From: an uncultured SAR86 cluster bacterium
Lineage (GTDB): Bacteria; Pseudomonadota; Gammaproteobacteria; Magnimaribacterales; D2472
Direction of reading: 5' to 3'
NCBI GenBank assembly: GCA_902594005.1
Contig: CACJKN010000002.1
Location: forward strand, 3,639-67,638
Length of the DNA: 64,000 nt
The notes below the pieces were generated by a model, which did no database searches, was not told the DNA's origin, and worked only from the letters and a program-made list of their open reading frames with translations. Shown piece by piece: positions 30,928-64,000 of the stretch (positions are counted from its first letter, which is position 1; the number at the start of each line of letters is the position of its first letter). Both the position numbers and the translations under genes were made by a program.

Positions 30928-30929
30928 AA

Positions 30930-35463: not shown

Positions 35464-35839
35464 TGCTAAACCTATTATTTATTGTAAATTTTTTACCTTG
35501 AAATTCAAAAATTATTACACTTTTATCAACTTGCACTAATTTATATTTATTTTCTAATAACTCATTTATCTGAACTACGTATTCTTTACCTCCCTTTTTT
35601 ACAATCACTGATGTATTCTCATCACCCAGTCTTACAGCGGATAATTCGTAGTTAAAGCTTGCAGGAGGTGTATTAGAAATATCGCTTCGTATAGTAGTGT
35701 TTTGAACATTGATTGGTCTAATTACAGAAAAATCCTCTATCTTATTAGAGCTATTCAAAATTAAAGTGTTAACAAGTAGATATGCTGATAGTGATATCAC
35801 TAAAAAGTAGAACACATATTTTAAATTTACTTTATTCAT
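35456..35839 (-). CDS. gspC: Minimal GspC-like protein (TM + HR domain only)
   Basis: 127 aa. N-terminal TM, then YELSAVRLGDENTSVIVKKGGKEYVVQINELLENKYKLVQVDKSVIIFEFQGKKFTI, which resembles the GspC/PilP HR fold pattern. 8-bp overlap with gspD. No PDZ or coiled-coil region. Confidence 0.55.
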   Translation of the reverse strand: MNKVNLKYVFYFLVISLSAYLLVNTLILNSSNKIEDFSVIRPINVQNTTIRSDISNTPPASFNYELSAVRLGDENTSVIVKKGGKEYVVQINELLENKYKLVQVDKSVIIFEFQGKKFTINNRFSNE

Positions 35840-44413: not shown

Positions 44414-44489
44414 TGGAGCGGGTGACGGGATTCGAACCCGTACCAATAGCTTGGAAGGCTATTGTGCTAGCCGTTAACACCACACCCGC
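44414..44489 (-). tRNA. tRNA-Gly (anticodon UCC)
   Basis: Hand fold of the reverse complement: acceptor GCGGGTG/CACCCGC, anticodon arm ATAGC-CTTCCAA-GCTAT, T arm ACGGG-TTCGAAT-CCCGT, CCA encoded. 76 nt. Confidence 0.9.
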
Positions 44490-49006: not shown

Positions 49007-50110
49007 ATGATCTTTGATAATTCATCCATCAAAGCGATTCATGAATCGCCCTACAAGTTTGTAATTTCATCCAGTGGTGGAGGAACTAATGCAATTTCTA
49101 CTTTAATGGGTGTGCCAGGTGCAAGCCAATCCATTTTAGAATCTTATGTGCCCTACTCGAGAGAATCTCTAGATATTCATTTAAACAAAAAACCTGATCA
49201 TTATTGTTCACAAGCAACATCGCTTCATATGGCATCATTGGCATATAAGAAAGCATTAAAGATATCCGATATTGATAAAAAATATCTATTTGGTATCGCT
49301 GTAACAGCCTCTTTGAAGAGTAATTACAATAAGCTTGGTGAGCATAGATTTCACATCGCCTTGCAAAACGAGAAACAAACTGTAGTCATCAACTGTGTTC
49401 TTGAAAAAAATATGAGATCTCGTGAAGAAGAAGAAAATTTATTATCAACATTTATATTAAATTTGATATCAAAGTCTTGTGCTTTAGAGTTTGAATATCC
49501 CCAAATATCTGATGAGATAGAAATTAGTGAAGTTCATGGAGAAAAAGATTGGATTGACCTAATTGATGACAAAGTCGGCTTTATCTCCAATACAGCAAAC
49601 AAACCTGAATTAATATTTCCTGGATCATTTAACCCTCTTCATAAAGGTCATCTTAAGATGAAAGAGGTCGCGGAAAGGAAAACTGGAATGGATCTATATT
49701 ATGAAATCTGTATTGATAATGTCGATAAGCCGCCATTAACTTTCTTTGAAATCTCAAACACAATCAATCAATTTGAAAATGATTCCTGGGTTTTAACAAA
49801 GGCTGGGAGATTTATTGATAAAGCCAAATTATTTGAAAATGCTACTTTTGTTATCGGTTATGACACCCTAAGAAGATTATTTAATGAAAAGTATTATGAA
49901 AATTCAAAAATCATGAAGGAAAATCTAATGATCTTTGATGACTTCAATATAAACTTCCTAGTATTTGGGAGAAAAGATTTTGATAAATTTAGATCTCTTG
50001 AAGATGTTGATATACCAGCGGAATTAAAACCCAGATTTACAGGTTTTGATGAAGATACATTCAGAGATGACATATCGTCATCAGAAATAAGGAAAAAGGA
50101 ATTAGATTAA
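49007..50110 (+). CDS. Fusion protein: PncC/CinA-C-like (NMN deamidase-like) N-domain + NadD-like nucleotidyltransferase C-domain
   Basis: N-domain: FVISSSGGGTNAISTLMGVPGASQSILESYVPYSRESL parallels PncC TAESCTGG...GSS..F..G.V.YSN..K. C-domain: FPGSFNPLHKGHLKM (the (T/H)xGH motif) and terminal ISSSEIRKK (the ISST.IR motif of NadD/NMNAT). Start at 49007 (MIFDNSS) or 48971. Confidence 0.6.
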   Translation: MIFDNSSIKAIHESPYKFVISSSGGGTNAISTLMGVPGASQSILESYVPYSRESLDIHLNKKPDHYCSQATSLHMASLAYKKALKISDIDKKYLFGIAVTASLKSNYNKLGEHRFHIALQNEKQTVVINCVLEKNMRSREEEENLLSTFILNLISKSCALEFEYPQISDEIEISEVHGEKDWIDLIDDKVGFISNTANKPELIFPGSFNPLHKGHLKMKEVAERKTGMDLYYEICIDNVDKPPLTFFEISNTINQFENDSWVLTKAGRFIDKAKLFENATFVIGYDTLRRLFNEKYYENSKIMKENLMIFDDFNINFLVFGRKDFDKFRSLEDVDIPAELKPRFTGFDEDTFRDDISSSEIRKKELD

Positions 50111-50301
50111 CTGTGAGGCGGTAATTTAGCTTCAACAAACCATTCGTGAACTCTCTTCACAGGATTAAACTTCTTAAGTCTGAGTTTAGTATTTTCTAAA
50201 ATAAATTTTCTAGTTTTAATTACAGTGTAGTGATAGGTGTGAGAATCACGCGTTTCACCTTCAGGAATTAAATATACTTTTGTTTGTTTTTTATCTGCCA
50301 T
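50107..50301 (-). CDS. rpmG: Divergent ribosomal protein L33 homolog (no Cys, stand-alone)
   Basis: MADKKQTKVYLIPEGETRDSHTYHYTVIKTRKFILENTKLRLKKFNPVKRVHEWFVEAKL aligns with E. coli L33 (...[48 protein letters not shown]) with a ~7-aa insertion. Start at the Met at 50301. Confidence 0.55.
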   Translation of the reverse strand: MADKKQTKVYLIPEGETRDSHTYHYTVIKTRKFILENTKLRLKKFNPVKRVHEWFVEAKLPPHS

Positions 50302-50343
50302 AACGTGCTGAATTATACACAAGAACTAGGAATTTTAAACAGA

Positions 50344-51249
50344 TTAAATGCTATTAATATAATTAAGACTGCCAAAAAGACAGGTATAACCCCTATTCGC
50401 TACTTTGACACCGACCTTATTAAGAATTTCCTTATGAATATCACTTTTTCCTTCTAAAAAATGCTTATTAAATAAATCTTTATTTGCTATCGTCAAAAAA
50501 GACCTAGAAAGAGACCCTGCAAGAATAATTCCACCTCCGTTTGAGAATGCCAGCGATAAGTCTGAGAGAGTTCTTGCAAAAGCTATGGTAAACATATTAA
50601 TTACCTCTATGGCATCATCGTCACCATTGAGAGAAAGAGAAAAGATCTCTTCTGACTTAACCTTATCTCCAGTCTTTATTTCAAACATTCTAGAAATTCC
50701 AGTACCTGAAATAACATCCTCTAAAACATTAAATTCATCACTGTTTATCTTTAGAAGAGATTTCAAAGCAGATAAGCCTAAGTTGGTGTTTCCTATCTCT
50801 GTTGCGATCACATTATTACCAGAAATCACTGATGCACCCAGACCAGTACCAGGCCCAATTACTAGAAAGGTATCATTAAAGGGCTCACCCTCTTTAAAAG
50901 TATCAAAATCATTTTCAGCGAATGTTCTGATACTATATCCAATTGACTCCCAGTCATTTAGCAAATAACAGGATTCTAGGTTAAATCTTTTTCTAATTTC
51001 ATCAGCATCTATTTCAAAATTCCTATTGGTCATCTTGATTGAATTGTTTACCTTAGGCCCTGCAACAGAAAAAACAATATTTTTAACATCTGCCTCAGCT
51101 AACAGCTCTGACATCAAATTATCAAAATCATTTAAGCTATCAAGTTCAGCTTTGTTTTCTGAAACAAAATCAGAATCTCCAATATTTGAATATGCGTATC
51201 TAATATTTGTTCCGCCAATATCAACAAGAAGAAGATTCTTATCTAGCAC
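50344..51249 (-). CDS. glk: Glucokinase
   Basis: LLLVDIGGTNIRYAY phosphate-1 motif, GPGTGLG, ILAGS. 301 aa. Confidence 0.8.
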   Translation of the reverse strand: MLDKNLLLVDIGGTNIRYAYSNIGDSDFVSENKAELDSLNDFDNLMSELLAEADVKNIVFSVAGPKVNNSIKMTNRNFEIDADEIRKRFNLESCYLLNDWESIGYSIRTFAENDFDTFKEGEPFNDTFLVIGPGTGLGASVISGNNVIATEIGNTNLGLSALKSLLKINSDEFNVLEDVISGTGISRMFEIKTGDKVKSEEIFSLSLNGDDDAIEVINMFTIAFARTLSDLSLAFSNGGGIILAGSLSRSFLTIANKDLFNKHFLEGKSDIHKEILNKVGVKVANRGYTCLFGSLNYINSI

Positions 51250-53681
51250 TGAATAACTCTCTTGGAACTTCTATCTTTATTTATGACAATCTTATTGATA
51301 TCTATGTCCCATTTTCCAGAAGTCATTAACATCGCAGGAATATATACTTTAGATAAATCTAGACCGCTTTTCTCTAGACATTTATAACTAATATCAACCT
51401 CGATCCAAGAATTATTATTTTGATCACTCAAGAAATCCATTAAATTAATTGCTCCACTGCAATTTACACCACAAGTTGCAACAAAAAATAATAGGTCATC
51501 AGATCTGGAGTTTACTCTAAACTTAATACTCACATATGGGTTGCTTAGCTCACTCATGACAAGGTTCTCATTCAATGATATGCCCCAGGCATTCATTAGC
51601 TCAGAATCATTAAAAACAATGTTTCTAGAGTCATACTGCTGATTAAGATCAAATCTTTTCAAAGAAATATTTTTTTCAGGGCTGGTGTATAAATTAGCAT
51701 TCACAATCGATGGAGATTTATTATTTTCAATTACAAACTCATTAGCGTTCAAAGGGGAGCCTTCAAAAATTATCTTACTTTCAATCTTTTCTATTATTTC
51801 TTCTTCTTCAAGAAAAGGGATATTAATACTATCGGAATAAGATAATCCATACCCAAAGGCAAATAAATGATCGGATAGAGGATCATTAGAATTTAGAACA
51901 GTCTGCGTAGATTTTTTAGGCCAAGTAAATGAAAGTTTTCCTGTGAAATCTTTATTTATATTTCCATCTTTTTTCAAGACAACATCAGCTATTCCTTCAA
52001 CGGCCTGACCAGGCAACCATGCAGCAATAAAAGCGGAGGAAAGATTTATTTGTTTGTTAACCGCCAGAGGCCTTCCGCTTAAAAATATTGAAGTAATGGG
52101 AATAGATTCGTTGCTAAGCTTTCTCATTGCATTTAAATAATTTAAGTCGGAGGATTTAAATGATAAATTCTTCACATCACCAAAGAACTCTGCATAGGGA
52201 TTTTCTCCATAAACTGAAATTACATAGTCAGGTTTTTGTTTGTAAGTGCCATTTTGTGAAAACTCTATTGAGCCTCCATTCTCAATGACTTGTTCAGCTA
52301 AAGCTTCGTATATGGATAGTGTATTTGGGAAATCTGACCTATTTAATTCAGTGCCCTGCCATGTGATTGTCCAGCCACCCATTTGATTCATTATTTCAAC
52401 AGCAGCATTACCAATTACTAAAAAATGTTTTGTTGAATCAAGAGGAAGTAAATTATCATTATTCTTAAGCAGAACTAGTGACTTTGATACCGCTTCTCTT
52501 GCAAGCTCTCTATGCTCAATTTTACCAACATAATTTTCATACTCATGTGGCTTTCGCCCATCAAGCATTCCAAGCCTATCCTTTACAGTGAGGATTTTTC
52601 TAACAGCATCATCCAATCTATCCTCTGAAATATCTCCAGATTTAACTGCCCTGACTGTGTTTGTATAAAGCTCTTTCCATTCATCAGGAGCCATATAAAT
52701 ATCCACACCAGCATTAAAACTTTCAGGACAATTTGCATTTGTACAACCTGGAACCTCTCCATGACCATTCCAATCTCCGACAACCAACCCATTGAAGCCC
52801 ATTTGATCTCTCAAAACGTCAGTTAAGAGATATTCGTGACCATGCATTTTCACTCCATTCCATGAGTTAAAACTTGCCATAACAGATTGAACACAAGCTT
52901 CAAAAGCTGAATAGTATGGCGTTCCATGTATGTTCTTCAAACCACCTTCAGAAATCCTGGTATCACCCTTATCAATACCCTTAAAAGTGCCGCCATCACC
53001 AATGAAGTGCTTCGCAGTTGCCATAATATGATTTGAATCAAGAAATTCATCACCGGTTCCTTGAACTCCCTCGATAAAAGCTTTTCCTATTCTTGATACA
53101 AGATCTTGATTCTCTGAAAAACCTTCATAAGTCCTTCCCCAAGTATCATTCTGAGGAACTGTGATTGTAGGAGCAAAAGTCCAAACAATCCCTGTTGAGA
53201 GGACTTCCTTAGCTACAACCTCTGCAATTCTTTTAATCAGGTCAGTATCTTGAGTCGCACCAATACCTATGTTGTGTGGGAATACAGTTGCTCCAATGAC
53301 ATTACTATGACCATGCACTGCATCTGTCCCCCATATAATTGGAACAATTTGATCTCCAATAATTGGTGAAGCATCATAATAAGCTTTGCTTAGATTTTGC
53401 CAATCTTGGACTGTGCTAGTTTTTTTATTATTTGGCCAACTTCCGCCTCCGTTGAGAATTGAACCTAACTGGTACTTTTTTGCTTCTCCAGGTGTGACAT
53501 ATTGGATATCAGGCATAATTATTTGCCCTATCTTTTGCCTTAATGTCATTTGATTAATGATTTCATCAAGGTTCTTTGAGTCCTCAATATTGCAAGTTGA
53601 TGGACTTGACCAATCTATAGATGCACTAGTATTTATAGAAATACCTAATAATAAGGCAATTAAGAAATATCTTTTTACCAC
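51243..53681 (-). CDS. Glycoside hydrolase family 3 beta-glucosidase/exo-beta-glucanase with extra C-terminal domain, exported
   Basis: Signal peptide. GH3 blocks SILNGGGSWP, WGTDAVHGH and KHFIGDGG, nucleophile region GFNGLVVGDWNGH. About 170-aa additional C-terminal domain (812 aa total). Confidence 0.85.
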   Translation of the reverse strand: MVKRYFLIALLLGISINTSASIDWSSPSTCNIEDSKNLDEIINQMTLRQKIGQIIMPDIQYVTPGEAKKYQLGSILNGGGSWPNNKKTSTVQDWQNLSKAYYDASPIIGDQIVPIIWGTDAVHGHSNVIGATVFPHNIGIGATQDTDLIKRIAEVVAKEVLSTGIVWTFAPTITVPQNDTWGRTYEGFSENQDLVSRIGKAFIEGVQGTGDEFLDSNHIMATAKHFIGDGGTFKGIDKGDTRISEGGLKNIHGTPYYSAFEACVQSVMASFNSWNGVKMHGHEYLLTDVLRDQMGFNGLVVGDWNGHGEVPGCTNANCPESFNAGVDIYMAPDEWKELYTNTVRAVKSGDISEDRLDDAVRKILTVKDRLGMLDGRKPHEYENYVGKIEHRELAREAVSKSLVLLKNNDNLLPLDSTKHFLVIGNAAVEIMNQMGGWTITWQGTELNRSDFPNTLSIYEALAEQVIENGGSIEFSQNGTYKQKPDYVISVYGENPYAEFFGDVKNLSFKSSDLNYLNAMRKLSNESIPITSIFLSGRPLAVNKQINLSSAFIAAWLPGQAVEGIADVVLKKDGNINKDFTGKLSFTWPKKSTQTVLNSNDPLSDHLFAFGYGLSYSDSINIPFLEEEEIIEKIESKIIFEGSPLNANEFVIENNKSPSIVNANLYTSPEKNISLKRFDLNQQYDSRNIVFNDSELMNAWGISLNENLVMSELSNPYVSIKFRVNSRSDDLLFFVATCGVNCSGAINLMDFLSDQNNNSWIEVDISYKCLEKSGLDLSKVYIPAMLMTSGKWDIDINKIVINKDRSSKRVIQC

Positions 53682-55237
53682 AGGCTGATATAGATTATTG
53701 ATAGTATCACTACAACTACAACAGTATTTACATTAAAAGCTTTAGATGTTGCAAAACTCATATCATTTAAATTAATAGCCTTAGGACTATCTGTATAGCC
53801 TTGAATCAGAGATGTTAAATAGCAAACAAAGAATGATGAAAAGAACACCACAGCCATTCTGTGAATAAATGGGTATTCAGGGAAAAAGTAAAATATAAAT
53901 ATTGATAAAGCTAGAGAAGTTAATGCAGCATTAAGTACTGATAATGTTGTAGCTTTTGGCCAAAATAGAGCTACTAAAAATATCACTAAAATCCCTGGAG
54001 TAAAAAATCCTGTAAAGTTTTGAATATATTGAAATGCTGACTCAAGACTTCCCAAGAGAGGTGTAGCAGAAAATACTGCTATTACTAAAGCAACAACCGA
54101 AGTTGATCTTCCAATGTTAACTAATCTTGCATTAGATGGATTATTTGTTGCATAAGCTCTATATACATCCATAGTAAATATTGTGCTTATGCTGTTAGTC
54201 ATAGATGCTAAAGACGAAACAATGGCTGCAATTAATGCAGCAAAAGTTAATCCGAGCAATCCATTGGGTAGTAAAGACATCATCATAGGATATGCTTTGT
54301 CACTTGTTTCAAGTAATGGGAATAGAACAGCTGCGCAAATTCCAGGAAGCACAATAACAAGCGGCATTATAATTTTTAAATAGGCTGCAAACATCACTCC
54401 CTTTTGTGCCTCTGGTAGAGACTTAGCACCAAGCGCTCTTTGTGTTATGTATTGATTAAAGCCCCAATATGCGAAGTGAGCTATCCAAAGACCGCCAATT
54501 AAGACCCAAACACCTGGAAGGTCTTTGTAGGATGGATTATCTGGAGATAAAATAATGTCCCATTTTTCAGGTAATGACCTATACACTTCAACGAAACCAT
54601 CAGTAACAACACCATTTCCAATCTTTGATAAAGCAATGAATGAGACGGCTAATCCACCAAATATTAATAGTACAACTTGAATGATATCTGTAAGTGCAAC
54701 AGCCTTTAATCCTCCGTATAACGAATATGCTAAAGATAATATTGCAAGTAAAACCAAGCCATAGAAGGTCTCAAGTCCTGTTAGTGTATTTATAGCAAGT
54801 GAACCAAGCCATAAGACTGAAGTAAGATTGATAAATACATACACTGCAAGCCAGAAAAAGGATAATACCAAGCTAACTCTTTTATCGAAGCGCTGCTCTA
54901 AGAATTGCGGCATTGTATAAATTTGTTTTTTTAGAAAGAGAGGCAAGAAATACTTTGCCATTACAATTAGAGCAATTGCAGCTGTAAGCTCATATGTCGC
55001 AATAGCTATACCCACCACAAAACCCTGACCTGACATACCGATAATTTGTTCTGCAGAAATATTTGCAGCTATCAAAGAGGCTCCTATTGCCCACCAAGGG
55101 AGCGACCTACCAGCTAAAAAATAATCCTCAGGACTTCTTTCAGATCCTGATTGTTGCCTAGAAACATATGTAGCAATAGCGATTATACCAACGCAATAAA
55201 TTGCAATGATTGAAAAATCTAATGAATTAAAAAACAT
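53675..55237 (-). CDS. Sodium:solute symporter (SSS family, SGLT-like sugar transporter)
   Basis: 520 aa, about 13-14 TM. YFLAGRSLPWWAIGASLIAANISAEQIIGMSG and GGLKAVALTDIIQ are SSS signatures. Confidence 0.8.
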   Translation of the reverse strand: MFFNSLDFSIIAIYCVGIIAIATYVSRQQSGSERSPEDYFLAGRSLPWWAIGASLIAANISAEQIIGMSGQGFVVGIAIATYELTAAIALIVMAKYFLPLFLKKQIYTMPQFLEQRFDKRVSLVLSFFWLAVYVFINLTSVLWLGSLAINTLTGLETFYGLVLLAILSLAYSLYGGLKAVALTDIIQVVLLIFGGLAVSFIALSKIGNGVVTDGFVEVYRSLPEKWDIILSPDNPSYKDLPGVWVLIGGLWIAHFAYWGFNQYITQRALGAKSLPEAQKGVMFAAYLKIIMPLVIVLPGICAAVLFPLLETSDKAYPMMMSLLPNGLLGLTFAALIAAIVSSLASMTNSISTIFTMDVYRAYATNNPSNARLVNIGRSTSVVALVIAVFSATPLLGSLESAFQYIQNFTGFFTPGILVIFLVALFWPKATTLSVLNAALTSLALSIFIFYFFPEYPFIHRMAVVFFSSFFVCYLTSLIQGYTDSPKAINLNDMSFATSKAFNVNTVVVVVILSIIYISLW

Positions 55238-55248
55238 GCTATCCCCTT

Positions 55249-56658
55249 TTAAAAGTTTACAACTCTAATTGCATCAGAATGTTTCTCAGAAAACATTCCA
55301 GAAATAAGAACAAACTTTAATTTTCTCTTTTTACTTAAAACCTTTTTGAGTGTATTAGCAATTTTAGACATATTATTTTTATTATCAACAATACTTTTTT
55401 GATAAAAACTTAAAACGGAGCCAACTAATGAAAGCTGTCTATGAACTCTTTTATCGTTTGTGAAAGCATATATTGGAGCGTTGAATGGCTTTGCATTGGA
55501 AACAAGGTTTGCTGTATATCCACTTCTTGTAATAACGATAATACCATCAGCATCAATTGACTCAGAAAGATCTCTAGCAGTCTTAGCTAAGTATTCCCAA
55601 TCGCCACTTAATTCAAGTTTTTCTTCATAACCTAATGTTCTAAATTTTTCTGACCTATCAGCTATTGATTTAAGAAATTTTATGCATTCAATTGGATATT
55701 TCCCAATACTGGTCTCACCAGATAACATAATTGCATCTGCACCCTCATAAATAGTATTAGCAACATCAGTTACTTCAGCTCTGGTAGGTGTTGGTTTCTC
55801 TATCATTGATTCTAACAAGTGAGTAGCTACGATAGATCTTCTACCCCATTTTGAACATGCATACATTATGCGTCTTTGTACATTTGGTAGATCAGCCAAG
55901 CTTGTTTCAATTCCAAGATCGCCTCGGGCAACCATGACAGCATCTGATTCTTGAGTAATAGCATGAATATTAGAAAGGCCTTCATTATCTTCAATCTTTG
56001 AAACAATTTTTATTTGTGATTTCTTTCTCTTAAGGATTTTTCTTAAGTTATGAATATCTTCTATTTTTCTAACAAAGGAAAGAGCTATGTAATCTACATC
56101 ATGTTTGATAGCAAAATTTATATCGGCCTTATCTTTTTTAGTTATGGAAGGAAGGTCTATCCTAACTCCGGGCAGATTAACGCTTCTCTTGCTACCAATT
56201 TTTCCTCCATCAATAACTCTGCATAAAAGCTTGTCATCATGTTTTTCTAAAACTTTAAAATTTACTAGGCCATTATCTACAGAAATCTTAGAGCCTTTCT
56301 TTACACTATTAATTAAGCCTCTATAGTTAATTTTGATAGATGATGTCTCAACATCAACTTCATCTCTTACAGTAAGATTTACTTTATCACCGAGCTTTAA
56401 ATCAAGAGACGTATCCCTATCTCCTGTTCTGATTTCAGGGCCTTGAGTATCTATCAAAATGGAAATTGGCCCCATTTTAATATCTGGATTTTTATTAATT
56501 AATTTAACATTATTAATTATATTTAATGCCTCATCATGAGATGCATGTGACATATTAATTCGAACAACATTCATTCCAGCTAAGTACATCTTTTGCATTG
56601 TGATTAATTCAGATGTAGCTGGGCCAATAGTGCAAATAATCTTTGTTCTAGTGAACAT
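55249..56658 (-). CDS. pyk: Pyruvate kinase
   Basis: TKIICTIGPA, VVRINMSHA, MVARGDLGIE, ATHLLESM, MLSGETSIGKYP. Confidence 0.95.
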   Translation of the reverse strand: MFTRTKIICTIGPATSELITMQKMYLAGMNVVRINMSHASHDEALNIINNVKLINKNPDIKMGPISILIDTQGPEIRTGDRDTSLDLKLGDKVNLTVRDEVDVETSSIKINYRGLINSVKKGSKISVDNGLVNFKVLEKHDDKLLCRVIDGGKIGSKRSVNLPGVRIDLPSITKKDKADINFAIKHDVDYIALSFVRKIEDIHNLRKILKRKKSQIKIVSKIEDNEGLSNIHAITQESDAVMVARGDLGIETSLADLPNVQRRIMYACSKWGRRSIVATHLLESMIEKPTPTRAEVTDVANTIYEGADAIMLSGETSIGKYPIECIKFLKSIADRSEKFRTLGYEEKLELSGDWEYLAKTARDLSESIDADGIIVITRSGYTANLVSNAKPFNAPIYAFTNDKRVHRQLSLVGSVLSFYQKSIVDNKNNMSKIANTLKKVLSKKRKLKFVLISGMFSEKHSDAIRVVNF

Positions 56659-56708
56659 GAGGTGGATATTACATTAAAAAACAACCATAAGGAATTTTTT
56701 TCAACACA

Positions 56709-56928
56709 AAAAAAAACAGAGCTTGCGCTCTGTCTCTTAGTTCGAGTTCCTCAAGTGTCTAAAGTGAGATTTTCTTTAGCTCCTTGGATGCTATCTCTTC
56801 ATCCTTGGTGGGTTTTAAAGCTATTTTTTATCGTATACTCTTTAAAACGCTTTCGCCTTGAGGGCTCTTCCTTTGATTTCTCTTAAGTTTCCGTCTGCAG
56901 TTGGTCTCTTATCGGTCCTCAATAGGTA
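56709..56928 (-). ncRNA. Candidate ~220-nt structured RNA (stand-alone sRNA or cis-acting leader of the pyk operon), GGA-rich
   Basis: Bounded by a near-consensus sigma70 promoter (56935-56962) and an intrinsic terminator (stem CAGAGC/GCTCTG at 56717-56732 followed by 9 U). No ORF longer than 3 codons from any ATG. Hand-found helices: GTTTTAAAG/CTTTAAAAC (9 bp), GGATG/CATCC, CTAAAG/CTTTAG, long-range GAG-CCTCAAG/CTTGAGG-CTC. Six GGA motifs. Confidence 0.4.
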
Positions 56929-56934
56929 AAGTTA

Positions 56935-56962
56935 ATATTACGCTCTTTTTAAAAAGTGTCAA
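56935..56962 (-). promoter_or_regulatory. Sigma70-type promoter for the candidate RNA
   Basis: Minus-strand reading: TTGACA (56962-56957) - 16 nt - TAATAT (56940-56935). Lies 30 nt downstream of the glcB stop. Confidence 0.5.
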
Positions 56963-56992
56963 CACCTAAATGCAAAAAAAGTTAAGTTTTTT

Positions 56993-59152
56993 TCAAGGGT
57001 TATTTTTCTTAAATTCTAAACGCCACTTATGCAACAACGGCTCGGTATATCCACTTGGTTGAGAAGCTCCTTTTATTGCTAAATCCAAGGAAGCTTGAAA
57101 TGCAAATCCAGAAAAATTTGATCCCATTTTTTGATAGTCTGGACTATCTTTATTTTGTTCGTCAACTACTAGAGCCATCTCTTTAAAAATATCAATTACT
57201 TCTTCCTCAGAACAAATACCATGAAAAATCCAGTTTGAAATATGCTGGCTTGATATTCTACAAGTTGCTCTATCTTCCATAAGACCAATATTATTAATAT
57301 CTGGAACTTTTGAACATCCAATACCCTGATCAATCCATCTTACGACATAACCAAGAATGCCTTGAGCACTGTTTGCTATCTCATTCCTAATTGTTTGTTT
57401 ATCTAAATTCTCCTTTAAAAGAGGTATTGTTAAGATGTTATCTAAATCAGCATGCTCTCTTGATGATAGTTCATCTTGTTTTGATAACACATCAACCTGA
57501 TGATAATGCATTGCATGAAGTGTTGCAGCTGTAGGTGATGGAACCCATGCACATGTTGCACCAGATAATGGGTGAGCTATTTTAGTTTCTACCATATCTT
57601 TCATCTCATCCGGCATGGCCCACATACCTTTTCCAATCTGAGCTTTGCCACTAAGACCACAACTTATACCTACATCCACATTCCAGTCCTCATAAGCGTT
57701 TATCCATGATTGAGATTTCATTTCTGATTTCGGAACCATAGGGCCAGCTTCCATACTTGTATGTATTTCATCTCCAGTTCTGTCTAGAAAACCAGTATTT
57801 ATAAAAATTATTCTTTCTTTAGCTTTTTCAATGCAGGCCTTTAGATTAATAGTGGTTCTTCTCTCCTCATCCATAATTCCAACTTTTACGGTATTTTTTT
57901 CTAGCTTAAATAATCTCTCAACTGCATCAAATAAATCACACGTAAAAGCTACCTCCTCAGAACCATGCATTTTTGGTTTAACAATATACATACTGTTGTT
58001 CCCTGAGTTTGACAATGCATTCAATTGATTTAGATCATATAACGCAATACAAATCGTAAACATAGCATCTAAAATTCCTTCAAAAACCTCTTCGCCATTG
58101 TCTAATATTACTGAAGGATTCTGCATTAAATGACCTACATTCCTAATAAGCAAAAGACTTCTTCCGGGTAGAGAAAAAGAATTTCCATCAATATCTAAAT
58201 ATTTTCTATCTTCTTTTAAGACTCTTGTTAATTGTTTCCCATTTTTTTCAAATGTTTCAGAAAGATCTCCTTTCATCAGACCTAGCCAGTTTCTATAGGC
58301 AATTACTTTATCTTCAGCATCAACTGCGGCAACTGAATCCTCACAATCTTGGATTGTTGAAACTGCAGACTCCAAAAAAATATCTTTAATATTTGCTTTA
58401 TCAGTCTTACCAACAGGATGATTGGGATCTATTTGAATTTCTAAATGGAGATTGTTATTAACTAATAAGATCTCTGAAGGATTTTCAGGAGATCCATTAA
58501 ATCCTTTGAATTGATTTTCATTTTTTAGATAACTAATTTTATTTTGCTCAGCATGAAAAAGTAATCTTTGATCCTTAATTGAAATATTTGTAATATCTTT
58601 ATAACTAAGATCAGTGATTGGGAAACAGTCATCTAAAAATTGTTTTGAAAAATCAATAACCTTATTTCCTCTTATTTCATTATATGCACCCTCTTTTGAT
58701 GCACCTCCATCTTCTGAAATAACATCCGTCCCGTATAGTGCATCATAAAGACTGCCCCACCTTGCATTGGTTGCATTCAAAGCAAATCTTGCATTCATGA
58801 TAGGGACAACAAGCTGAGGTCCTGGGATACTTGAAATTTCAGGATCTGTATTCATGGTTCTGATTGTAAAATCTGCAGGCACTTCTTCTAAGTAACCTAT
58901 TTCTTGTAAAAACCTTTTATATTCATTTAAATTAAAATCATTATTCTTATGCCAAGCAGAGATTTGATCTTGCAACAAAGATCTTTTGGCTAATAAATCT
59001 TTATTTCTTTGATGGAATTCCTCTAAAAGACCTTCAAACTTTTCCCAAAACTCATCTGAGTTTATATCAAGTCCCGAGAGCACCTCATCATTAAGAAATC
59101 TATCGAGAGTATTATGAATATTAAGGCTGCCGCGTTTTATATAGTCTTCCAT
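56993..59152 (-). CDS. glcB: Malate synthase G
   Basis: 719 aa, the size typical of MSG. Blocks GPQLVVPIMNARFALNATNARWGSLYDALYGTD, IVKPKMHGSEE, MDEERRTT, MPDEM. Confidence 0.9.
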   Translation of the reverse strand: MEDYIKRGSLNIHNTLDRFLNDEVLSGLDINSDEFWEKFEGLLEEFHQRNKDLLAKRSLLQDQISAWHKNNDFNLNEYKRFLQEIGYLEEVPADFTIRTMNTDPEISSIPGPQLVVPIMNARFALNATNARWGSLYDALYGTDVISEDGGASKEGAYNEIRGNKVIDFSKQFLDDCFPITDLSYKDITNISIKDQRLLFHAEQNKISYLKNENQFKGFNGSPENPSEILLVNNNLHLEIQIDPNHPVGKTDKANIKDIFLESAVSTIQDCEDSVAAVDAEDKVIAYRNWLGLMKGDLSETFEKNGKQLTRVLKEDRKYLDIDGNSFSLPGRSLLLIRNVGHLMQNPSVILDNGEEVFEGILDAMFTICIALYDLNQLNALSNSGNNSMYIVKPKMHGSEEVAFTCDLFDAVERLFKLEKNTVKVGIMDEERRTTINLKACIEKAKERIIFINTGFLDRTGDEIHTSMEAGPMVPKSEMKSQSWINAYEDWNVDVGISCGLSGKAQIGKGMWAMPDEMKDMVETKIAHPLSGATCAWVPSPTAATLHAMHYHQVDVLSKQDELSSREHADLDNILTIPLLKENLDKQTIRNEIANSAQGILGYVVRWIDQGIGCSKVPDINNIGLMEDRATCRISSQHISNWIFHGICSEEEVIDIFKEMALVVDEQNKDSPDYQKMGSNFSGFAFQASLDLAIKGASQPSGYTEPLLHKWRLEFKKNNP

Positions 59153-59173
59153 ATTTATATTTTATCAGAGGTA

Positions 59174-59650
59174 TTAAACGCTTTCTTTAACTGCCAATCT
59201 CAAATCAAATGGAATACTGCCAAGATTGTCATGACTGTGCTTTAAAGATGTTATTGATTGAAAGAAAGAATCATCCATTTCGATTATCTTCCGTAAATTC
59301 ATGTCAATATGGCCCAATACAGTCTCATAGACAGTACATATATTATTTTCTGAGTCTAAAAGGCATCCCAATATATGGATACATTTCCTGTTTAAACCAA
59401 CAATCCTAAAAGAGGGATATATTGAATCACCTTCAAGAAACTCTTTAAAGTATTTTAAATTTTCCTCTAACGTAAATGAAGAATAACCATTATTGAAATA
59501 CTCATCATCAAATCCCATATCTGTGTACATTTGGCCCCAACACCCATCGAAACATCTGGTATATGATCCAGTGTTCATATGACCATTGTGGTCACACATC
59601 TCTTGAGTAACTAGTATTTTTTCACCATGATAAGGAAATAATTCTTTCAT
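59174..59650 (-). CDS. Hotdog-fold acyl-CoA thioesterase (4HBT-like)
   Basis: 158 aa. N-terminal V..EMCDHNGHMNTGSY resembles the 4HBT/YbgC catalytic region (D..GH.N...Y). Confidence 0.55.
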   Translation of the reverse strand: MKELFPYHGEKILVTQEMCDHNGHMNTGSYTRCFDGCWGQMYTDMGFDDEYFNNGYSSFTLEENLKYFKEFLEGDSIYPSFRIVGLNRKCIHILGCLLDSENNICTVYETVLGHIDMNLRKIIEMDDSFFQSITSLKHSHDNLGSIPFDLRLAVKESV

Positions 59651-59667
59651 AAGTAATGATTATTAAT

Positions 59668-59743
59668 TGGAGCGGGAAACGAGGTTCGAACTCGCGACCT
59701 CAACCTTGGCAAGGTTGCGCTCTACCAGCTGAGCTATTCCCGC
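59668..59743 (-). tRNA. tRNA-Gly (anticodon GCC)
   Basis: Reverse complement folds as acceptor GCGGGAA/TTCCCGC, D arm GCTC-AGCTGGTA-GAGC, anticodon arm CAACC-TTGCCAA-GGTTG, T arm GCGAG-TTCGAAC-CTCGT, CCA encoded. 76 nt. Confidence 0.92.
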
Positions 59744-59917
59744 ATCACAAGTGGGTAGTAAATATAACTGCAATGGAATGGGCTTTCAAGCAGAATTGTA
59801 AAAAGTTTAGTGATGAATGAGATTCATAAAACTCATCATTGCTCATCATTTTGGTATGATTAGAATTGTGGAACTTTTATTAGATTTTTAAGAAATGAGT
59901 AGGCTTCTTTATTTATC

Positions 59918-60823
59918 ATGATAGAAACAAAAACATTTTCACCAAATGTCTTTAATAGCTTTGCTATACAAGCTTATCGTTTAGTGTTTGGTCGTATTTT
60001 ACCTCAGTCATTGTTTCGCAATAAAATACCTGCTGAAGCAGATCGCAAGGCAGTGAAGGGAAAGTTTGATTTAGAGATTGTGAGTCACTGTTGGGGTTAT
60101 GCCAACATGTTAACCTATCAATTAAGTTCGTTTGTAAACTATCCACCAACAAAACTAAATTTAACTGTGACCGTTTTTTATGCTGAAGAAGATACTAAAA
60201 CAAAGGCTACATTGGACTTCTTTAGTCAAATAACCATGCCAAATATAACTTGGAATTTTCACCCACTTTCCAAAGGAAAGCTCTTCAGACGTGCCATAGG
60301 CCGAAATATGGCTGCGCGGTCAACAGAAGCTGACTGGATATGGTTTACAGATTGCGACATTATCTTTTATGAGAACTGCTTAGACTCACTCGCCGATAGT
60401 TTACAAGGCGAGAAAGGTTCATTGTTTTTTCCTAAAGAAGAAAAAATCACTGAGATGTTAAAAGATGATGACCCATTATTGTCAAACGGTGCCCAACCAC
60501 AAGTTATCGACATAGATACAGAAAATTTCAGTTTATATGAGCGTGATAAATCCCGTGATAAAGCACGCGGCGCATTTCAAATTGTTCATGGTGACGTTGC
60601 TCGTGCTATCGGTTATTGTGAAAAACTGTCAATATTTCAAACTGAATCTGACCGTTGGCGTAAAACCTATGAAGACACCGCCTTTCGCTGGCTACTTGGT
60701 ACTGATGGTGAGCCTAAGCATATTGATGGTGTTTTTCATATTCATCATGTTACAAAAGGACGTTATAAAGAAAATTCTCAATTGTCTAAAGTGCGTAGTA
60801 ATATCCGTTTAAGCCAAAAATAG
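59918..60823 (+). CDS. Putative GT-A-fold glycosyltransferase (DxD type), on a G+C-rich insertion
   Basis: 301 aa. ADWIWFTDCDIIFYENC contains a DxD-like DCD motif after a beta-strand, preceded by a Rossmann-like LEIVSHCWGY...LTVTVFYAEED segment. Adjacent to kdkA, which suggests an LPS-core function. Family not identified. Confidence 0.45.
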   Translation: MIETKTFSPNVFNSFAIQAYRLVFGRILPQSLFRNKIPAEADRKAVKGKFDLEIVSHCWGYANMLTYQLSSFVNYPPTKLNLTVTVFYAEEDTKTKATLDFFSQITMPNITWNFHPLSKGKLFRRAIGRNMAARSTEADWIWFTDCDIIFYENCLDSLADSLQGEKGSLFFPKEEKITEMLKDDDPLLSNGAQPQVIDIDTENFSLYERDKSRDKARGAFQIVHGDVARAIGYCEKLSIFQTESDRWRKTYEDTAFRWLLGTDGEPKHIDGVFHIHHVTKGRYKENSQLSKVRSNIRLSQK

Positions 60824-60827
60824 TTAC

Positions 60828-61553
60828 ATGGCATATATACAACAAAAAGCAGTTAAGTCCCACATCATGTTGTTTGATGGAGGCCATTTCCCTGCACCTG
60901 CCCCAAAAATGTTTACGGGTCAATATTGGAAAACACAAAATGCTATAACAGGACAGGCAACTGGCCGAGGCACCACCTACTTTTTTCAACATAACAAAAA
61001 TGAATATGTGTTACGGCACTATCGTCGCGGCGGCTTGATTGGAAAAGTACTAAGTGATCAATATATTTATACAGGTATTGAAAAATCACGAGCATGGCAA
61101 GAATTTAAGCTGCTACAGCACATGAAAAATATGGATTTAAATTGTCCAACTCCGATCGCAGCGATGTTGAAGAAGACAGGCTTATATTACCAAGCCGATA
61201 TCATTTTAAAAAAAATTTCCAGCGCTAAGGACTTACATCATATTTTACTAGCAAACAGCTTAACCGCTGATGTATGGAAAAAAATTGGGCAAACCATTGC
61301 CAAATTTCATCATCATCAGATTTATCTCCACGATTTAAATATCCACAACATTATGCTCGATATAGAAAACGAGGTTTGGTTAATTGATTTTGATAAATGC
61401 CGAATTAGAAAAGGCAGTAATTGGAAAAACTCAAACATAGCGCGTTTAAAGCGATCGTTTGAAAAAGAAAAACGGTTACATAATATTTATTGGCAACTAG
61501 CCGATTGGCAAATACTAATATCTGCCTATAACGAAGCGGCAATGGCTAATTAA
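60828..61553 (+). CDS. kdkA: 3-deoxy-D-manno-octulosonic acid (Kdo) kinase
   Basis: GQATGRGTTYFF, YVLRHYRRGGLIGK, AWQEFKLLQHM and LHDLNIHNIMLD...WLIDFDKC parallel the Haemophilus/Vibrio KdkA blocks (GRGTTWF, LRHY.RGGL, HxDLNxxNIL, DFD). Confidence 0.85.
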   Translation: MAYIQQKAVKSHIMLFDGGHFPAPAPKMFTGQYWKTQNAITGQATGRGTTYFFQHNKNEYVLRHYRRGGLIGKVLSDQYIYTGIEKSRAWQEFKLLQHMKNMDLNCPTPIAAMLKKTGLYYQADIILKKISSAKDLHHILLANSLTADVWKKIGQTIAKFHHHQIYLHDLNIHNIMLDIENEVWLIDFDKCRIRKGSNWKNSNIARLKRSFEKEKRLHNIYWQLADWQILISAYNEAAMAN

Positions 61554-61665
61554 CTCGATATTTAATCTCAGTAAATACTAATACATCGGTTTTAGAATCA
61601 GTATTTTCTACTTTTCCATGTTCAATGCTTGCACTTAATTTGACTAACCAATCACCGCAGGCTGC
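61546..61665 (-). pseudogene. 3' remnant (39 codons + stop) of an unidentified gene at the right edge of the G+C-rich insertion
   Basis: Minus-strand frame reads AACGDWLVKLSASIEHGKVENTDSKTDVLVFTEIKYRVN*. There is no start codon and in-frame stops lie immediately upstream (TAA at 61668-61666). Composition matches the insertion, not the host. Overlaps the kdkA stop by 8 bp. Confidence 0.45.
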
Positions 61666-61686
61666 TTAATAAAATCAAGGATTCAA

Positions 61687-62079
61687 CTAAATTTGCTTAA
61701 GAGCTTCAACCATTTTTGCTCTAACGATTTCAACTGCTTTAAAGGGTCTAATCATGACTTTAAAATTAAGTATCTTGCCATCATCATCCCACTCAATCAT
61801 ATCCACCCCATTTACGCTTATGTCATCAATTGTCGTCTCGAATTCTAGAACAGAGTGATTACCATCATTCAATTCTCTAGTGTATTTAAAGCTGTCCATA
61901 TTGAATGAAAGACCAGCCGCACTTAGATACATTTTTGTAATTTCTTTGCCTTCAAGTGGTGTAAAAACTACGGGTGAATAAAAAGTAGCATTATCGTTGA
62001 GAAGGTTATCAAGAAGCTCCATTTTCCCTTCAAGCATAACCTCATGCCATTTCTTTATATAATCTGCTGCGTCTGTCAT
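61687..62079 (-). CDS. NTF2/SnoaL-like fold protein
   Basis: 130 aa. W..V.EG....L..LL.D...F.SPV ... G....EW.DDGKI pattern typical of SnoaL-like domains. Confidence 0.5.
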   Translation of the reverse strand: MTDAADYIKKWHEVMLEGKMELLDNLLNDNATFYSPVVFTPLEGKEITKMYLSAAGLSFNMDSFKYTRELNDGNHSVLEFETTIDDISVNGVDMIEWDDDGKILNFKVMIRPFKAVEIVRAKMVEALKQI

Positions 62080-62101
62080 ATAAGTATTATAAATTTAATT
62101 C

Positions 62102-62134
62102 AAAAAAAAGGAGAGCAATGCTCCCCTCTTTTTT
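62102..62134 (-). terminator. Intrinsic terminator downstream of the TonB-dependent receptor gene
   Basis: AAAAAAAAGGAGAGC-AAT-GCTCCCCTCTTTTTT: 8-position stem (one mismatch) flanked by A8 and T6 runs, 15 bp after the receptor stop. Confidence 0.65.
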
Positions 62135-62149
62135 AAGATTGCTTAAAAA

Positions 62150-64000
62150 TTAGAAATCCTTTTGGAATCTAACTCCATATGCCATTGGAGGAGCATACAT
62201 TGCTTTAACAAATCCAGCATTAGCAGGATATGAATCAGTCTTTATAAGCTCATCAGTAGCATTATGTATGTAAAACTCTAAGCCCCAAGCATTAGCCTCA
62301 TTAATGAAAACCATACTAGTATTAACTGTATGCAAGTCATCTCTTCCACTATGGAATGGCTCTCTGTCATAGTTGCTTTCGTTATAGAACATTTCACCAG
62401 TGTAATTAACATTAATAATATTCATGATTCTAAAGCCGTTGCCAGTGTATGTATTATGCTCAAACTGAAGATTCCATGATAATTCCGGAGACCATGTTAG
62501 ATGTTTGCCACTTAAATCAATGGTTCCATCTGCATTGCACGGATCAACACCGACTAAAGCTCTTTCCATACAAAGATATCCATCTTGTGTAGCTTCAGCA
62601 GAACTTGATCCACCATTTTCTGTATCAAGCATTGATACCCAACCAAATAGACGACCTGCTTCATAAGGTCTCCAATCAAATTCTAGCTCAACACCTTGAA
62701 TGGTTGAATTTGGAACATTCTTTGTCATCAGTGTATAAATAGCTTGGCCATCTAATTCTCTGTATCCAACAAAACCAAATAATGTTCTTTGCATATCTTC
62801 GTAATCGCTGTAGAAAACGTTACCTAAAAGTTTGAGATCGCCATCGAGATGAACTGATTTAAAACCAAGCTCATATGTAGTATTTAATTCAGAATCATAC
62901 TCAAAGTTTATGAACTCACCATCGCCTCTATCAACATTATCGCCAAATCCACCAGCTTTATAACCAGTTGCAACTGATGCATAAAGGAATAGATCATCGT
63001 TTGCGATATAGTCAGCGCCCAGTCTCCATGTTCCTTGATCCCATTTAGCATCATAGTCATTTCGTGCATTAGCTACGAATGCTGAAAGATCATCACTACC
63101 GCTGATACCCATGCTTGGAAGCAAGTCATCAGATTGATAGTATTGATTCCATGGTGAGAAGGTAAAGTTTGTTCCATCAAAACCAGTTAGTGTTGTATCT
63201 CCAACAAAATCATAGCTTTCAAACCAAAAACAAGGGCCTCCATTACAATAAGCATTAGCATTATCGAAGTAGCCATATGTTTTATAAGTTCTTCCACCTA
63301 CGTCTCTTTTTTCATCCCATGTATGCCTATAACCTACTGTTAGGTTTAGACCATCAACACCTGTTTTATAGTCTAGTTGACCAAAAATAGCTGAAGTTTC
63401 TGTAGTTCTTTCTGGTTGAAGATATATTTCATGTAGCGGTCTAATAATTGGTCCAAGGAATGGCATTTCTACATCAAATCTAGTGTATGTCTCTTCATCC
63501 ATATGGAAAATACCGGCCACCCATTGAACGTCTCCTTCACCATCAGATTTAAGTTGGAACTCAAGGACATTAGATTTGTTATTCTGAATTGTTCTGTAAA
63601 GCTCATCAAACCACATAGGTTTAACAGCATTATTAAGAGCTGCTGCTGCATTTCCAGGAGAAAGTCCAAGAAGGCCAGCTACTGCATCTAAATCCTGCAT
63701 CCAAAAAGAGTACTGACAGCCATATGCGAATGATGATTCAACAGAACCACCCCAACCCATTTGACAGTTGTCATAACCCATATCCCAAGCAGTATTTTGG
63801 TAATATGCATCTCCATTAAAACCTGTTCCATTTGAACCAGCTACTCTAGGACCCCATCCATATTGGTAACCAAATAAGCCGCCAAAATGTCCTCTTAGTG
63901 CTGTCCAATTCATCATCATTGAATCAGGATGATTTCTAACAAAGCCATAAGCCGGGTGAGTTGGTGAAGTATGAAAACCACCATCACCATCGTACATTTG
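62150..64000 (-). CDS. TonB-dependent outer-membrane receptor, C-terminal ~616 codons (5' end lies beyond the right window edge)
   Basis: The frame stays open through position 64000 (Q precedes the track's Met). Alternating aromatic beta-strand pattern (YELGFKS, LGNVFYSDYEDMQ, GVELEFDW) and a C-terminal ...YGVRFQKDF with terminal Phe. Confidence 0.8.
   Translation of the reverse strand, partial: QMYDGDGGFHTSPTHPAYGFVRNHPDSMMMNWTALRGHFGGLFGYQYGWGPRVAGSNGTGFNGDAYYQNTAWDMGYDNCQMGWGGSVESSFAYGCQYSFWMQDLDAVAGLLGLSPGNAAAALNNAVKPMWFDELYRTIQNNKSNVLEFQLKSDGEGDVQWVAGIFHMDEETYTRFDVEMPFLGPIIRPLHEIYLQPERTTETSAIFGQLDYKTGVDGLNLTVGYRHTWDEKRDVGGRTYKTYGYFDNANAYCNGGPCFWFESYDFVGDTTLTGFDGTNFTFSPWNQYYQSDDLLPSMGISGSDDLSAFVANARNDYDAKWDQGTWRLGADYIANDDLFLYASVATGYKAGGFGDNVDRGDGEFINFEYDSELNTTYELGFKSVHLDGDLKLLGNVFYSDYEDMQRTLFGFVGYRELDGQAIYTLMTKNVPNSTIQGVELEFDWRPYEAGRLFGWVSMLDTENGGSSSAEATQDGYLCMERALVGVDPCNADGTIDLSGKHLTWSPELSWNLQFEHNTYTGNGFRIMNIINVNYTGEMFYNESNYDREPFHSGRDDLHTVNTSMVFINEANAWGLEFYIHNATDELIKTDSYPANAGFVKAMYAPPMAYGVRFQKDF

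Follow-up and report, generated by a model that had tools for sequence, protein, structure and literature searches.

Probable recent acquisition of a trimmed lipopolysaccharide inner-core gene fragment from Paraglaciecola-like Alteromonadaceae by a SAR86-type genome

SAR86 bacteria rank with the most abundant heterotrophs of the surface ocean that have not been cultured, and discussion of their streamlined genomes usually centres on gene loss. Marine bacterioplankton also carry flexible (“glycotype”) islands, which are tRNA-flanked in Prochlorococcus and appear as cell-envelope hypervariable regions in SAR11 and Alteromonas; the gain of surface-polysaccharide genes into tRNA-proximal flexible islands is an event of a type already known. 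Here we describe a two-gene module in a 64-kb stretch of DNA from an uncultured SAR86 cluster bacterium (contig CACJKN010000002.1; the whole stretch, 64,000 nucleotides, is called the window). The module consists of a glycosyltransferase gene (GT) and kdkA, which encodes a Kdo (3-deoxy-D-manno-octulosonic acid) kinase. Judged by its sequence, the 1.9-kb segment at about 59788-61676 is very probably a recently acquired, trimmed fragment of a waa cluster from Paraglaciecola-like Alteromonadaceae in a SAR86-type genome. It lies in a variable interval between a TonB-dependent receptor (TBDR) gene and the genes for tRNA-Gly(GCC) and malate synthase G (MSG).

Like the glycotype islands, this locus holds surface-polysaccharide genes of foreign composition in a tRNA-proximal variable interval, its content varies between close relatives (the module with or without two sulfotransferase genes), and exchange by homologous recombination through conserved flanks is plausible. 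Unlike those islands, the module is very small (two genes), appears to come from a different order (copiotrophic Alteromonadaceae), keeps 95% identity or more in many divergent SAR86 lineages, beside three different tRNAs, and would act on inner-core (Kdo-level) chemistry rather than on O-antigen or capsule. A second comparison is with the canonical waa cluster containing kdkA in Vibrio, Haemophilus, Pasteurellaceae and Alteromonadales (waaA-...-kdkA-coaD-mutM-rpmBG). Here too kdkA is a full-length equivalog, and the donor clade has it in precisely this cluster, beside waaA, whereas in the window it stands apart from waaA and the other core genes, paired with one GT-A transferase amid metabolic genes. 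Like tRNA-targeting integrative islands, prophages, and integrative and conjugative elements, the module adjoins a tRNA gene, and does so at the 3' side where that gene is tRNA-Glu or tRNA-Ala; unlike them, it has no integrase, duplicated tRNA 3' end or att repeats, and in the window it occupies the 5' (promoter) side. Insertion hotspots of the tRNA-like kind have been discussed for marine metagenome-assembled genomes (MAGs), including those of SAR86 (PMC12379486). What is notable here is the combination of an identifiable cross-order donor, spread through multiple lineages and sites at 95% identity or more, a series of trimming states and no mobility gene.

The donor locus was recovered in a metagenome scan and is referred to as L135 (the same as L127). 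Its gene order is waaA, a GT4 remnant, GT4, GT, 311 nucleotides (nt), kdkA, wzi, coaD and mutM. Relative to it, the foreign unit in the window has the following parts:

59788..59901, plus strand: leader of ~115 bp, which travels with the module among low-GC genomes and is without homology to the Paraglaciecola-type donor locus
59902..59917, plus strand: 5' untranslated region of the GT, the first 16 donor-homologous bases (blastn to L135:9985-10000 within the 97% match)
59918..60823, plus strand: GT-A-fold DxD glycosyltransferase of 301 amino acids (aa), distantly GT2-like, 97% nt identity to L135
60824..60827, strandless: 4-nt GT-kdkA spacer, a deletion scar; L135 10907-11217 is missing from the window
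60828..61553, plus strand: kdkA, intact, encoding a Kdo kinase of 241 aa, an NF002475 equivalog, 96% nt identity to L135
61549..61676, minus strand: stub of wzi, the gene for capsule assembly protein Wzi, comprising its final ~39-42 codons and interrupted by a stop codon; the donor DNA ends here on the right

The donor-homologous part falls into two blocks, window 59902-60823 matching L135:9985-10906 (97% nt) and 60817-61676 matching L135:11218-12077 (96% nt), with the donor intergenic region of 311 nt between GT and kdkA reduced to 4 nt. The L135 coaD, mutM, wzi and waaA products are 99, 91, 90 and 80% identical in aa to those of Paraglaciecola sp. MB-3u-78. In this cultured strain and related Tara contigs, kdkA lies in a waaA-GT4-kdkA-(wzi)-coaD-mutM-rpmGB-radC-dfp core cluster; in donor-type loci waaA is found 2-4 kb upstream of kdkA. 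Three further loci (L144, L145 and L149) are collinear with L135 at 75-85% nt in all aligned blocks, GT and kdkA included, and this uniformity indicates that the GT-kdkA arrangement is native to the donor clade and vertically inherited there. Where homologues of the two proteins carry a name, down to about 55-60% identity, the names are mostly those of Alteromonadales (such as Paraglaciecola, Colwellia and Glaciecola) and never SAR86; Halieaceae, Candidatus Thioglobus, Congregibacter and one Alphaproteobacteria-labelled MAG make up the small remainder.

The truncated gene remnant that an earlier note on this DNA, made from the letters alone, had seen in the segment turns out to be the 3' end of wzi. 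The stub comprises 123 bp with 96% nt identity to L135:11955-12077, and its minus-strand translation, ...AACGDWLVKLSASIEHGKVENTDSKTDVLVFTEIKYRVN*, matches the C-terminus of the L135 Wzi protein. The stub reads ...GDWLVKLSASIEHGKVENTDSKTDVLVFTEIKYRVN*, the L135 Wzi reads ...GDWLVKLGASIEHGKVDDADSKTDVLVFTEIKYRLN, and a Gln-to-stop change lies just upstream in the stub. A tblastn comparison of the stub with Wzi of the cultured Paraglaciecola strain shows 74% identity across 42 aa (E 4e-15). From its sequence, the stub reads as non-functional.

The true compositional signal sits at synonymous sites, not in bulk G+C. The G+C content at third codon positions (GC3) of kdkA, 0.343, is the highest among the 59 open reading frames (ORFs) of the window (z 3.4), and the ORFs at 59918-60823 and 60828-61553 show the worst fit to window codon usage among the same 59 (z -2.9 and -2.6). 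Codon usage was further compared through a per-codon log-likelihood ratio (LLR) of Paraglaciecola-type genes versus window genes. This ratio is -0.107 +/- 0.031 over 51 window genes (maximum -0.043) and +0.149 +/- 0.053 over 72 donor-type genes. The values for GT (+0.145) and kdkA (+0.118) fall within the donor-type range, 7-8 standard deviations (SD) from the window's genes, whereas the two genes that flank the module, encoding a thioesterase (-0.051) and a SnoaL-like protein (-0.099), are host-like. The GC3 of the module (0.29-0.34) likewise matches that of the donor locus (0.325).

These data bear directly on the direction of transfer. Movement from SAR86 or an unsampled lineage into L135-type Paraglaciecola, or delivery to both from a third donor, would accord with the position of L135, which in a tree of all copies, themselves one tight clade, is nested inside and not clearly basal. 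It would also accord with the L135 KdkA being only ~71% identical to that of MB-3u-78, when its neighbours reach 80-99%, and with a 115-bp leader that has no known source. We nevertheless consider it improbable, given that GT-kdkA-wzi is found in waa context in the three collinear loci, that wzi is intact in donor-type loci and truncated in SAR86 contexts, that the codon usage is of Paraglaciecola type and that the homologue labels point to Alteromonadales.

Synonymous divergence (dS) of the module is 0.075-0.105 among the window, L135 and two other SAR86-context copies, L001 and L122 (window versus L135, 0.075-0.089; window versus L001, 0.087-0.105), and 0.016-0.021 between L117 and L135. The dS of MSG between the window and its close relative L139 is 0.36, and the low module dS against this value indicates that the transfer was recent; for GT, the dS between L135 and L144 is 0.50.

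Across 55 metagenome loci, near-identical copies (GT 94-98% aa, KdkA mostly 90-96%) have left flanks of at least 10 classes. About 10 SAR86-like contexts hold copies with 95% identity or more, and all left flanks have SAR86-like codon usage. Flanks were clustered after masking donor-homologous DNA, as unmasked single-linkage clustering merged all of them through shared donor DNA and sulfotransferase genes. The module lies on the 5' side of tRNA-Gly(GCC) in the window type, on the 3' side of tRNA-Glu(TTC) in L001, L117 and L140, and on the 3' side of tRNA-Ala(GGC) in L119, L130, L131, L136, L138, L156 and others. Upstream, the donor tract ends at L135 positions 8513-8570 (intact GT4 included), 9761, 9799, 9920, 9983-9989 or 9998; downstream, it ends at 11944-12205. 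The longest versions in SAR86 contexts (about 3.4-3.7 kb) retain GT4, GT, kdkA and the wzi stub, and the GT-kdkA spacers across copies measure 322, 199, 100, 56-67, 4, 3, 0 and -1 nt. From the alignments, these nested ends are most simply read as progressive trimming after entry. In the tRNA-Glu-type copies (L001 10903-10910, L117, L140 and L141), the GT stop and kdkA start overlap or abut (ATAATG), the extreme of the spacer-shortening series.

The differing lengths of donor DNA, and in particular their differing upstream ends, raise the question of whether each SAR86 context made its own acquisition from a Paraglaciecola-like donor, with no SAR86-to-SAR86 spread. The near identity of L117, which keeps the longest tract, to L135 speaks in the same direction. 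Several shared derived features make such a history unlikely. Window-type loci and loci of the c3 type, whose farther flanks are unrelated, share the 9983-9985 breakpoint, the 4-nt spacer and the non-donor 115-bp leader, and the unit must therefore have moved between SAR86-like genomes after trimming; L158 is another unrelated context with these features. The leader is 93-99% identical in tRNA-Gly-type loci and in L106, L108, L133, L137, L156 and L158, the farther-left flanks of these six being unrelated, and was not found in L135 or in viral contigs; it is presumed to be a promoter. Copies with the 4-nt spacer (3 nt in three loci) form one sub-clade of the concatenated tree. In L122, where the thioesterase gene and MSG are only 78-79% nt identical to those of the window (78% for the thioesterase gene) and the module is 96-97% identical, the junctions are the same as in the window, and identity steps from 64-88% to 96-100% inside tRNA-Gly. 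This step fits homologous replacement anchored in the conserved tRNA. Finally, the GT and kdkA trees disagree for some loci (e.g. L112 and L156), which suggests recombination among resident copies. Most likely, both repeated acquisition and spread from one SAR86 genome to another occurred.

In some close relatives of the window type (L104 2261-3614, L111 4869-6306, L118, L123, L125 and L143), two sulfotransferase genes stand between kdkA and the SnoaL gene, at a site corresponding to window 61554-61686. The insert is 1.4-1.6 kb long with a GC of ~0.45 and replaces most of the wzi stub. Its genes match Sulfotransfer_3/1 and Sulfotransfer_2, and the pair also accompanies the module in other contexts; these variants make the site a small hotspot of envelope modification. 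An insertion sequence element was considered as an identity for this GC-rich insert and rejected, as it encodes the two sulfotransferases and no transposase.

The host can be identified from the genes around the module. The window gene order of MSG, pyruvate kinase (PK), SSF transporter, GH3 and ROK kinase recurs, at 44-81% aa identity, in L004, L008, L012 and L021, where tRNA-Gly(GCC) and a TBDR likewise lie upstream. These are SAR86 single-cell or metagenome-assembled genomes with a GC of 0.33-0.36; that of the window is 33%. By this synteny the host is a SAR86-type gammaproteobacterium, since the gene order is common to SAR86 genomes despite the modest identity. Compared with species-representative genomes, MSG shows 56-65% identity among the matches listed, with no sister genome among them, and it was from these that the SAR86 synteny emerged. 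The host population appears very abundant, as at least 120 distinct variants of its methionyl-tRNA synthetase were found at 97-100% identity. These variants carry no taxon names, and protein-cluster membership yields labels no finer than Gammaproteobacteria or Pseudomonadota bacterium. The host-side features at the insertion site are:

59668..59743, minus strand: host tRNA-Gly(GCC), detected by ARAGORN and Rfam RF00005 (69.2 bits); left anchor of the insertion site
59744..59787, strandless: lineage-specific host spacer next to the tRNA, not common to c3-type contexts in the alignment
59174..59650, minus strand: 4HBT_2 thioesterase gene (PF13279, 65.8 bits), the host-side left flank, outside the module
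61687..62079, minus strand: SnoaL_2-like protein gene (PF12680, 29.5 bits), the host-side right flank, outside the module

The tRNA gene lies upstream of MSG in 8 SAR86 loci (most of those compared), of which L012 also has the orthologous TBDR, and is an ancestral neighbour of MSG in SAR86 genomes. Its 5' end points toward the module, as the earlier note had placed it. The same note drew the borders at 59744 and 61686, about 45 bp too far out at the left end and 10 bp at the right. In eight SAR86 loci, GT and kdkA were not found beside tRNA-Gly, so that the segment is not one carried by all relatives. By comparison of these genomes, the whole interval from TBDR to MSG looks like a variable region.

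Could GT and kdkA nonetheless be ancient, vertically inherited SAR86 genes that owe their composition to gene-specific codon selection? The bulk GC shift is small, GC3 is raised in the thioesterase and SnoaL genes too, and the same general neighbourhood (TBDR...tRNA-Gly...MSG) occurs in the window and in the L001/L012 lineage. This explanation is very hard to sustain. L001, a 1.0-Mb sequence with 34.6% GC, is syntenic with the window region and matches the window at 96.3% nt only from 3 bp before the GT start to the kdkA stop. Its flank is 85% nt identical to, and collinear with, the SAR86 MAG L012, so the orthologues of the L001 lineage are just 47-81% aa identical to those of the window, a distance that contrasts with a module dS of 0.08-0.10. 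Vertical descent also leaves the foreign wzi stub attached to the module, the donor-type codon usage between host-type flanks and the 8 SAR86 loci lacking the module beside tRNA-Gly to be accounted for. Five independent lines (donor identity, wzi remnant, codon usage, dS contrasts and unrelated contexts) thus uphold the earlier proposal of recent horizontal acquisition from a somewhat higher-GC gammaproteobacterium.

That abundant Paraglaciecola-like DNA was joined to a SAR86 contig in assembly or binning can be dismissed almost entirely, although the module is a 95-99% inter-genome repeat, and short-read assemblers can jump between genomes at such repeats. One contig of a single-cell genome (GCA_902590885.1, CACIYN010000003.1) aligns to window 49174-63438 with 99.6% identity and crosses both junctions at 99.6-100%. 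The left junction recurs in at least 10 more contigs (e.g. L083 and L084), the right in at least 3 (e.g. L091 and L139), taken from metagenome assemblies of Tara, other ENA sources and JGI; together these exclude a chimera. The SAR86-context copies also have a derived 4-nt spacer, a truncated wzi with a stop and a leader, which the Paraglaciecola-type copy lacks. Both outcomes that the earlier note named as refuting its reading, an assembly chimera and a segment of the same composition in all relatives, are excluded.

Several observations weigh against an acquired, trimmed waa-cluster fragment as the explanation of the segment, or limit its detail. First, the region's bulk G+C of 0.362 exceeds the window mean of 0.330 by only 1.6 SD, and 5% of equal-sized windows are as high; the adjacent TBDR gene on the right, at 0.383, lies above the segment. 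The earlier note's hand counts of 29/60, 23/60 and 16/60 G+C were exact on recount, 23/60 being an ordinary value. The sharp jump in composition drawn from them is weak in bulk G+C and shows at synonymous sites and in codon usage. Second, no empty tRNA-Gly site was recovered in exact-protein look-ups of the thioesterase, SnoaL protein and pyruvate kinase, and the module is present in every retrieved contig of the host population that reaches the site; the insertion is therefore deduced by comparison with SAR86 loci farther removed than a sister genome would be. Third, the taxonomic labels come from synteny and identity to a few named records together with codon usage, not from phylogenomic placement. 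Fourth, no waaA or other core gene was found within the 64-kb window, so that the KdkA substrate, a single-Kdo core, may or may not be present in this host. Fifth, single junctions are real, and the pairing of left and right flanks across a 95-99% repeat could be chimeric in short-read metagenome contigs. Sixth, no mobility gene, repeat, or phage or plasmid match was found, so that the mechanism of transfer has to be deduced indirectly.

The searches behind this last point covered both the window and other contexts. The neighbours in the window (thioesterase, MSG, SnoaL and TBDR) include no integrase, and twenty neighbours in other contexts include no mobility gene, being metabolic, envelope-related or without a family match. 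Neither an att duplication nor a direct repeat of the tRNA 3' end was detected, only chance-like short repeats in 59500-62200. Nothing marks the segment as an insertion sequence, composite transposon or integron cassette: no transposase ORF or terminal inverted repeats were found, and the Rfam matches were to tRNA only. Phage, plasmid and viral-contig searches with the module DNA, GT, KdkA and the leader were negative, except for a 41% KdkA relative on one viral contig. This contig, IMG/VR UViG_3300007208_000164 (L185 42-740), belongs to a viral collection, and its distant KdkA relative is unrelated to the module. The lack of an integrase and the placement on the 5' side of the tRNA agree with the earlier statement that classical tRNA-targeted integration is not involved; elsewhere, the module is on the 3' side of tRNA-Glu and tRNA-Ala.

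Starting from the acquired-fragment reading, we propose a model in which waaA-GT4-GT4-GT-(311 nt)-kdkA-wzi-coaD-mutM was inherited vertically in the donor clade and a piece of this cluster entered SAR86-like genomes. Since no mobility gene, repeat or vector match was found, first entry would best be attributed to donor DNA recombining, illegitimately or through micro-homology, into hypervariable regions close to tRNA genes. Progressive trimming after entry would account for the nested losses, leaving GT, kdkA, 16 bp of 5' untranslated region and the 123-bp wzi stub in the window. Later spread among SAR86 lineages sharing a site would have proceeded by homologous recombination through the perfectly conserved tRNA gene and flanking genes, and selection would have maintained it. 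A bolder version is tentative and, in our estimate, rather less likely than its alternative: a very recent gene-specific sweep that carried a two-gene inner-core lipopolysaccharide (LPS) module from copiotrophic Paraglaciecola into many divergent SAR86 families, across an order boundary and beside different tRNAs without an integrase. If true, this sweep would imply that a DNA vehicle of broad host range, be it a gene-transfer agent, a vesicle or a generalised transducing phage, has gone unrecognised in the surface ocean; it would also imply strong common selection on Kdo phosphorylation, for example through escape from phage that use the inner core as receptor.

The earlier identification of a DxD glycosyltransferase and kdkA was correct. 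KdkA matches NCBIfam NF002475 with 298.6 bits (cut-off 142) over residues 4-237 of 241 and PF06293 with 164.1 bits. Its translation contains the kinase catalytic motifs (H-x-D-L-x-x-x-N loop and D-F-D) in ...YLHDLNIHNIMLD...WLIDFDKC.... The GT resembles GT2 only distantly: against PF00535 it reaches 21.9 bits, below the gathering threshold of 23.3, in a partial match over residues 104-166, and a precomputed PF00535 match is present on some of its homologues. The DxD motif, T144-D145-C146-D147, is invariant in 30 GT homologues of 60-96% identity. An AlphaFold2 model of the protein (mean predicted local distance difference test score 85.7, predicted template modelling (TM) score 0.88) gave Foldseek matches to K4CP (2z86), SpsA (1h7q), CHSY3 and TarP at probability 1.0 and TM-scores of 0.46-0.51. 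Among PDB sequences, a profile search picked up CHSY3 marginally and nothing else. On the strength of this model, the ORF at 59918-60823 is assigned as a GT-A-fold enzyme, which probably adds an inner-core sugar.

The single Kdo that a monofunctional KdtA attaches in V. cholerae is next phosphorylated by KdkA, and LpxL of V. cholerae, H. influenzae and B. pertussis requires this phosphate (PMC3178793). By analogy with its role in Vibrio, Haemophilus and Bordetella, KdkA would phosphorylate the Kdo of Kdo-lipid A in the host. Together, KdkA and the GT would change how the innermost LPS core is charged and built, and thereby the cell surface that phages, grazers and cations meet. Both ORFs are intact in all copies translated (window, L001, L117, L122, L135 and L144), and their ratio of nonsynonymous to synonymous divergence (dN/dS) is 0.2-0.44 (0.2-0.36 for kdkA against other copies), which argues that GT and kdkA are functional. 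The 241-aa KdkA and 301-aa GT proteins share one 7620-member 90% protein cluster, probably through fused gene calls; the cluster size indicates that the module is abundant in ocean metagenomes.

The locus presents a clean, datable gene gain, with an identifiable donor clade and visible trimming from about 3.5 kb to exactly two ORFs. The same allele in many SAR86 lineages offers a handle on how DNA moves from copiotrophs to oligotrophs without recognisable mobile elements, and on which traits of the cell surface selection now acts most strongly. A chemical trait, a phosphorylated single-Kdo inner core, is also predicted for organisms that cannot yet be grown.

A few further features of the region were recorded. 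The best sigma-70-like match, TTGAAA-17-TATATT (10/12), lies at window 59789-59761 on the minus strand, pointing into tRNA-Gly. It is a consensus match only; its position at the left edge of the mobile unit may explain the retention of 45 bp of host spacer. On the GT side, a promoter and terminator scan found nothing above shuffled expectation. A 54-aa ORF at window 59656-59820 (plus strand), annotated in public records (e.g. L082 3618-3782), runs antisense across tRNA-Gly and is almost certainly spurious.

Of the flanking genes, the SnoaL gene has 93-97% nt identity to its counterparts in the window-type relatives L104, L118, L123, L139 and L143. The earlier note had called it AT-rich; its match to SnoaL_2 stands, and its GC3 of 0.321 is not AT-rich for this genome. 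The thioesterase gene has the third and the SnoaL gene the second highest GC3 in the window, both with host-like codon usage, and neither was found near tRNA-Gly in the other SAR86 loci. A second glycine tRNA gene, tRNA-Gly(UCC) at window 44414-44489 (minus strand), lies downstream of malate synthase; it is conserved in SAR86 loci L002, L005 and L011 and supports the SAR86 host assignment. Neighbours of the module in other contexts include a protein with 17 MORN repeats (L141 4238-5689) and a 2407-aa ORF (L121 6429-13652). Farther off in the window, 27040-35839 (minus strand) is occupied by a type II secretion gene cluster (gspD, gspE, gspF and neighbours).

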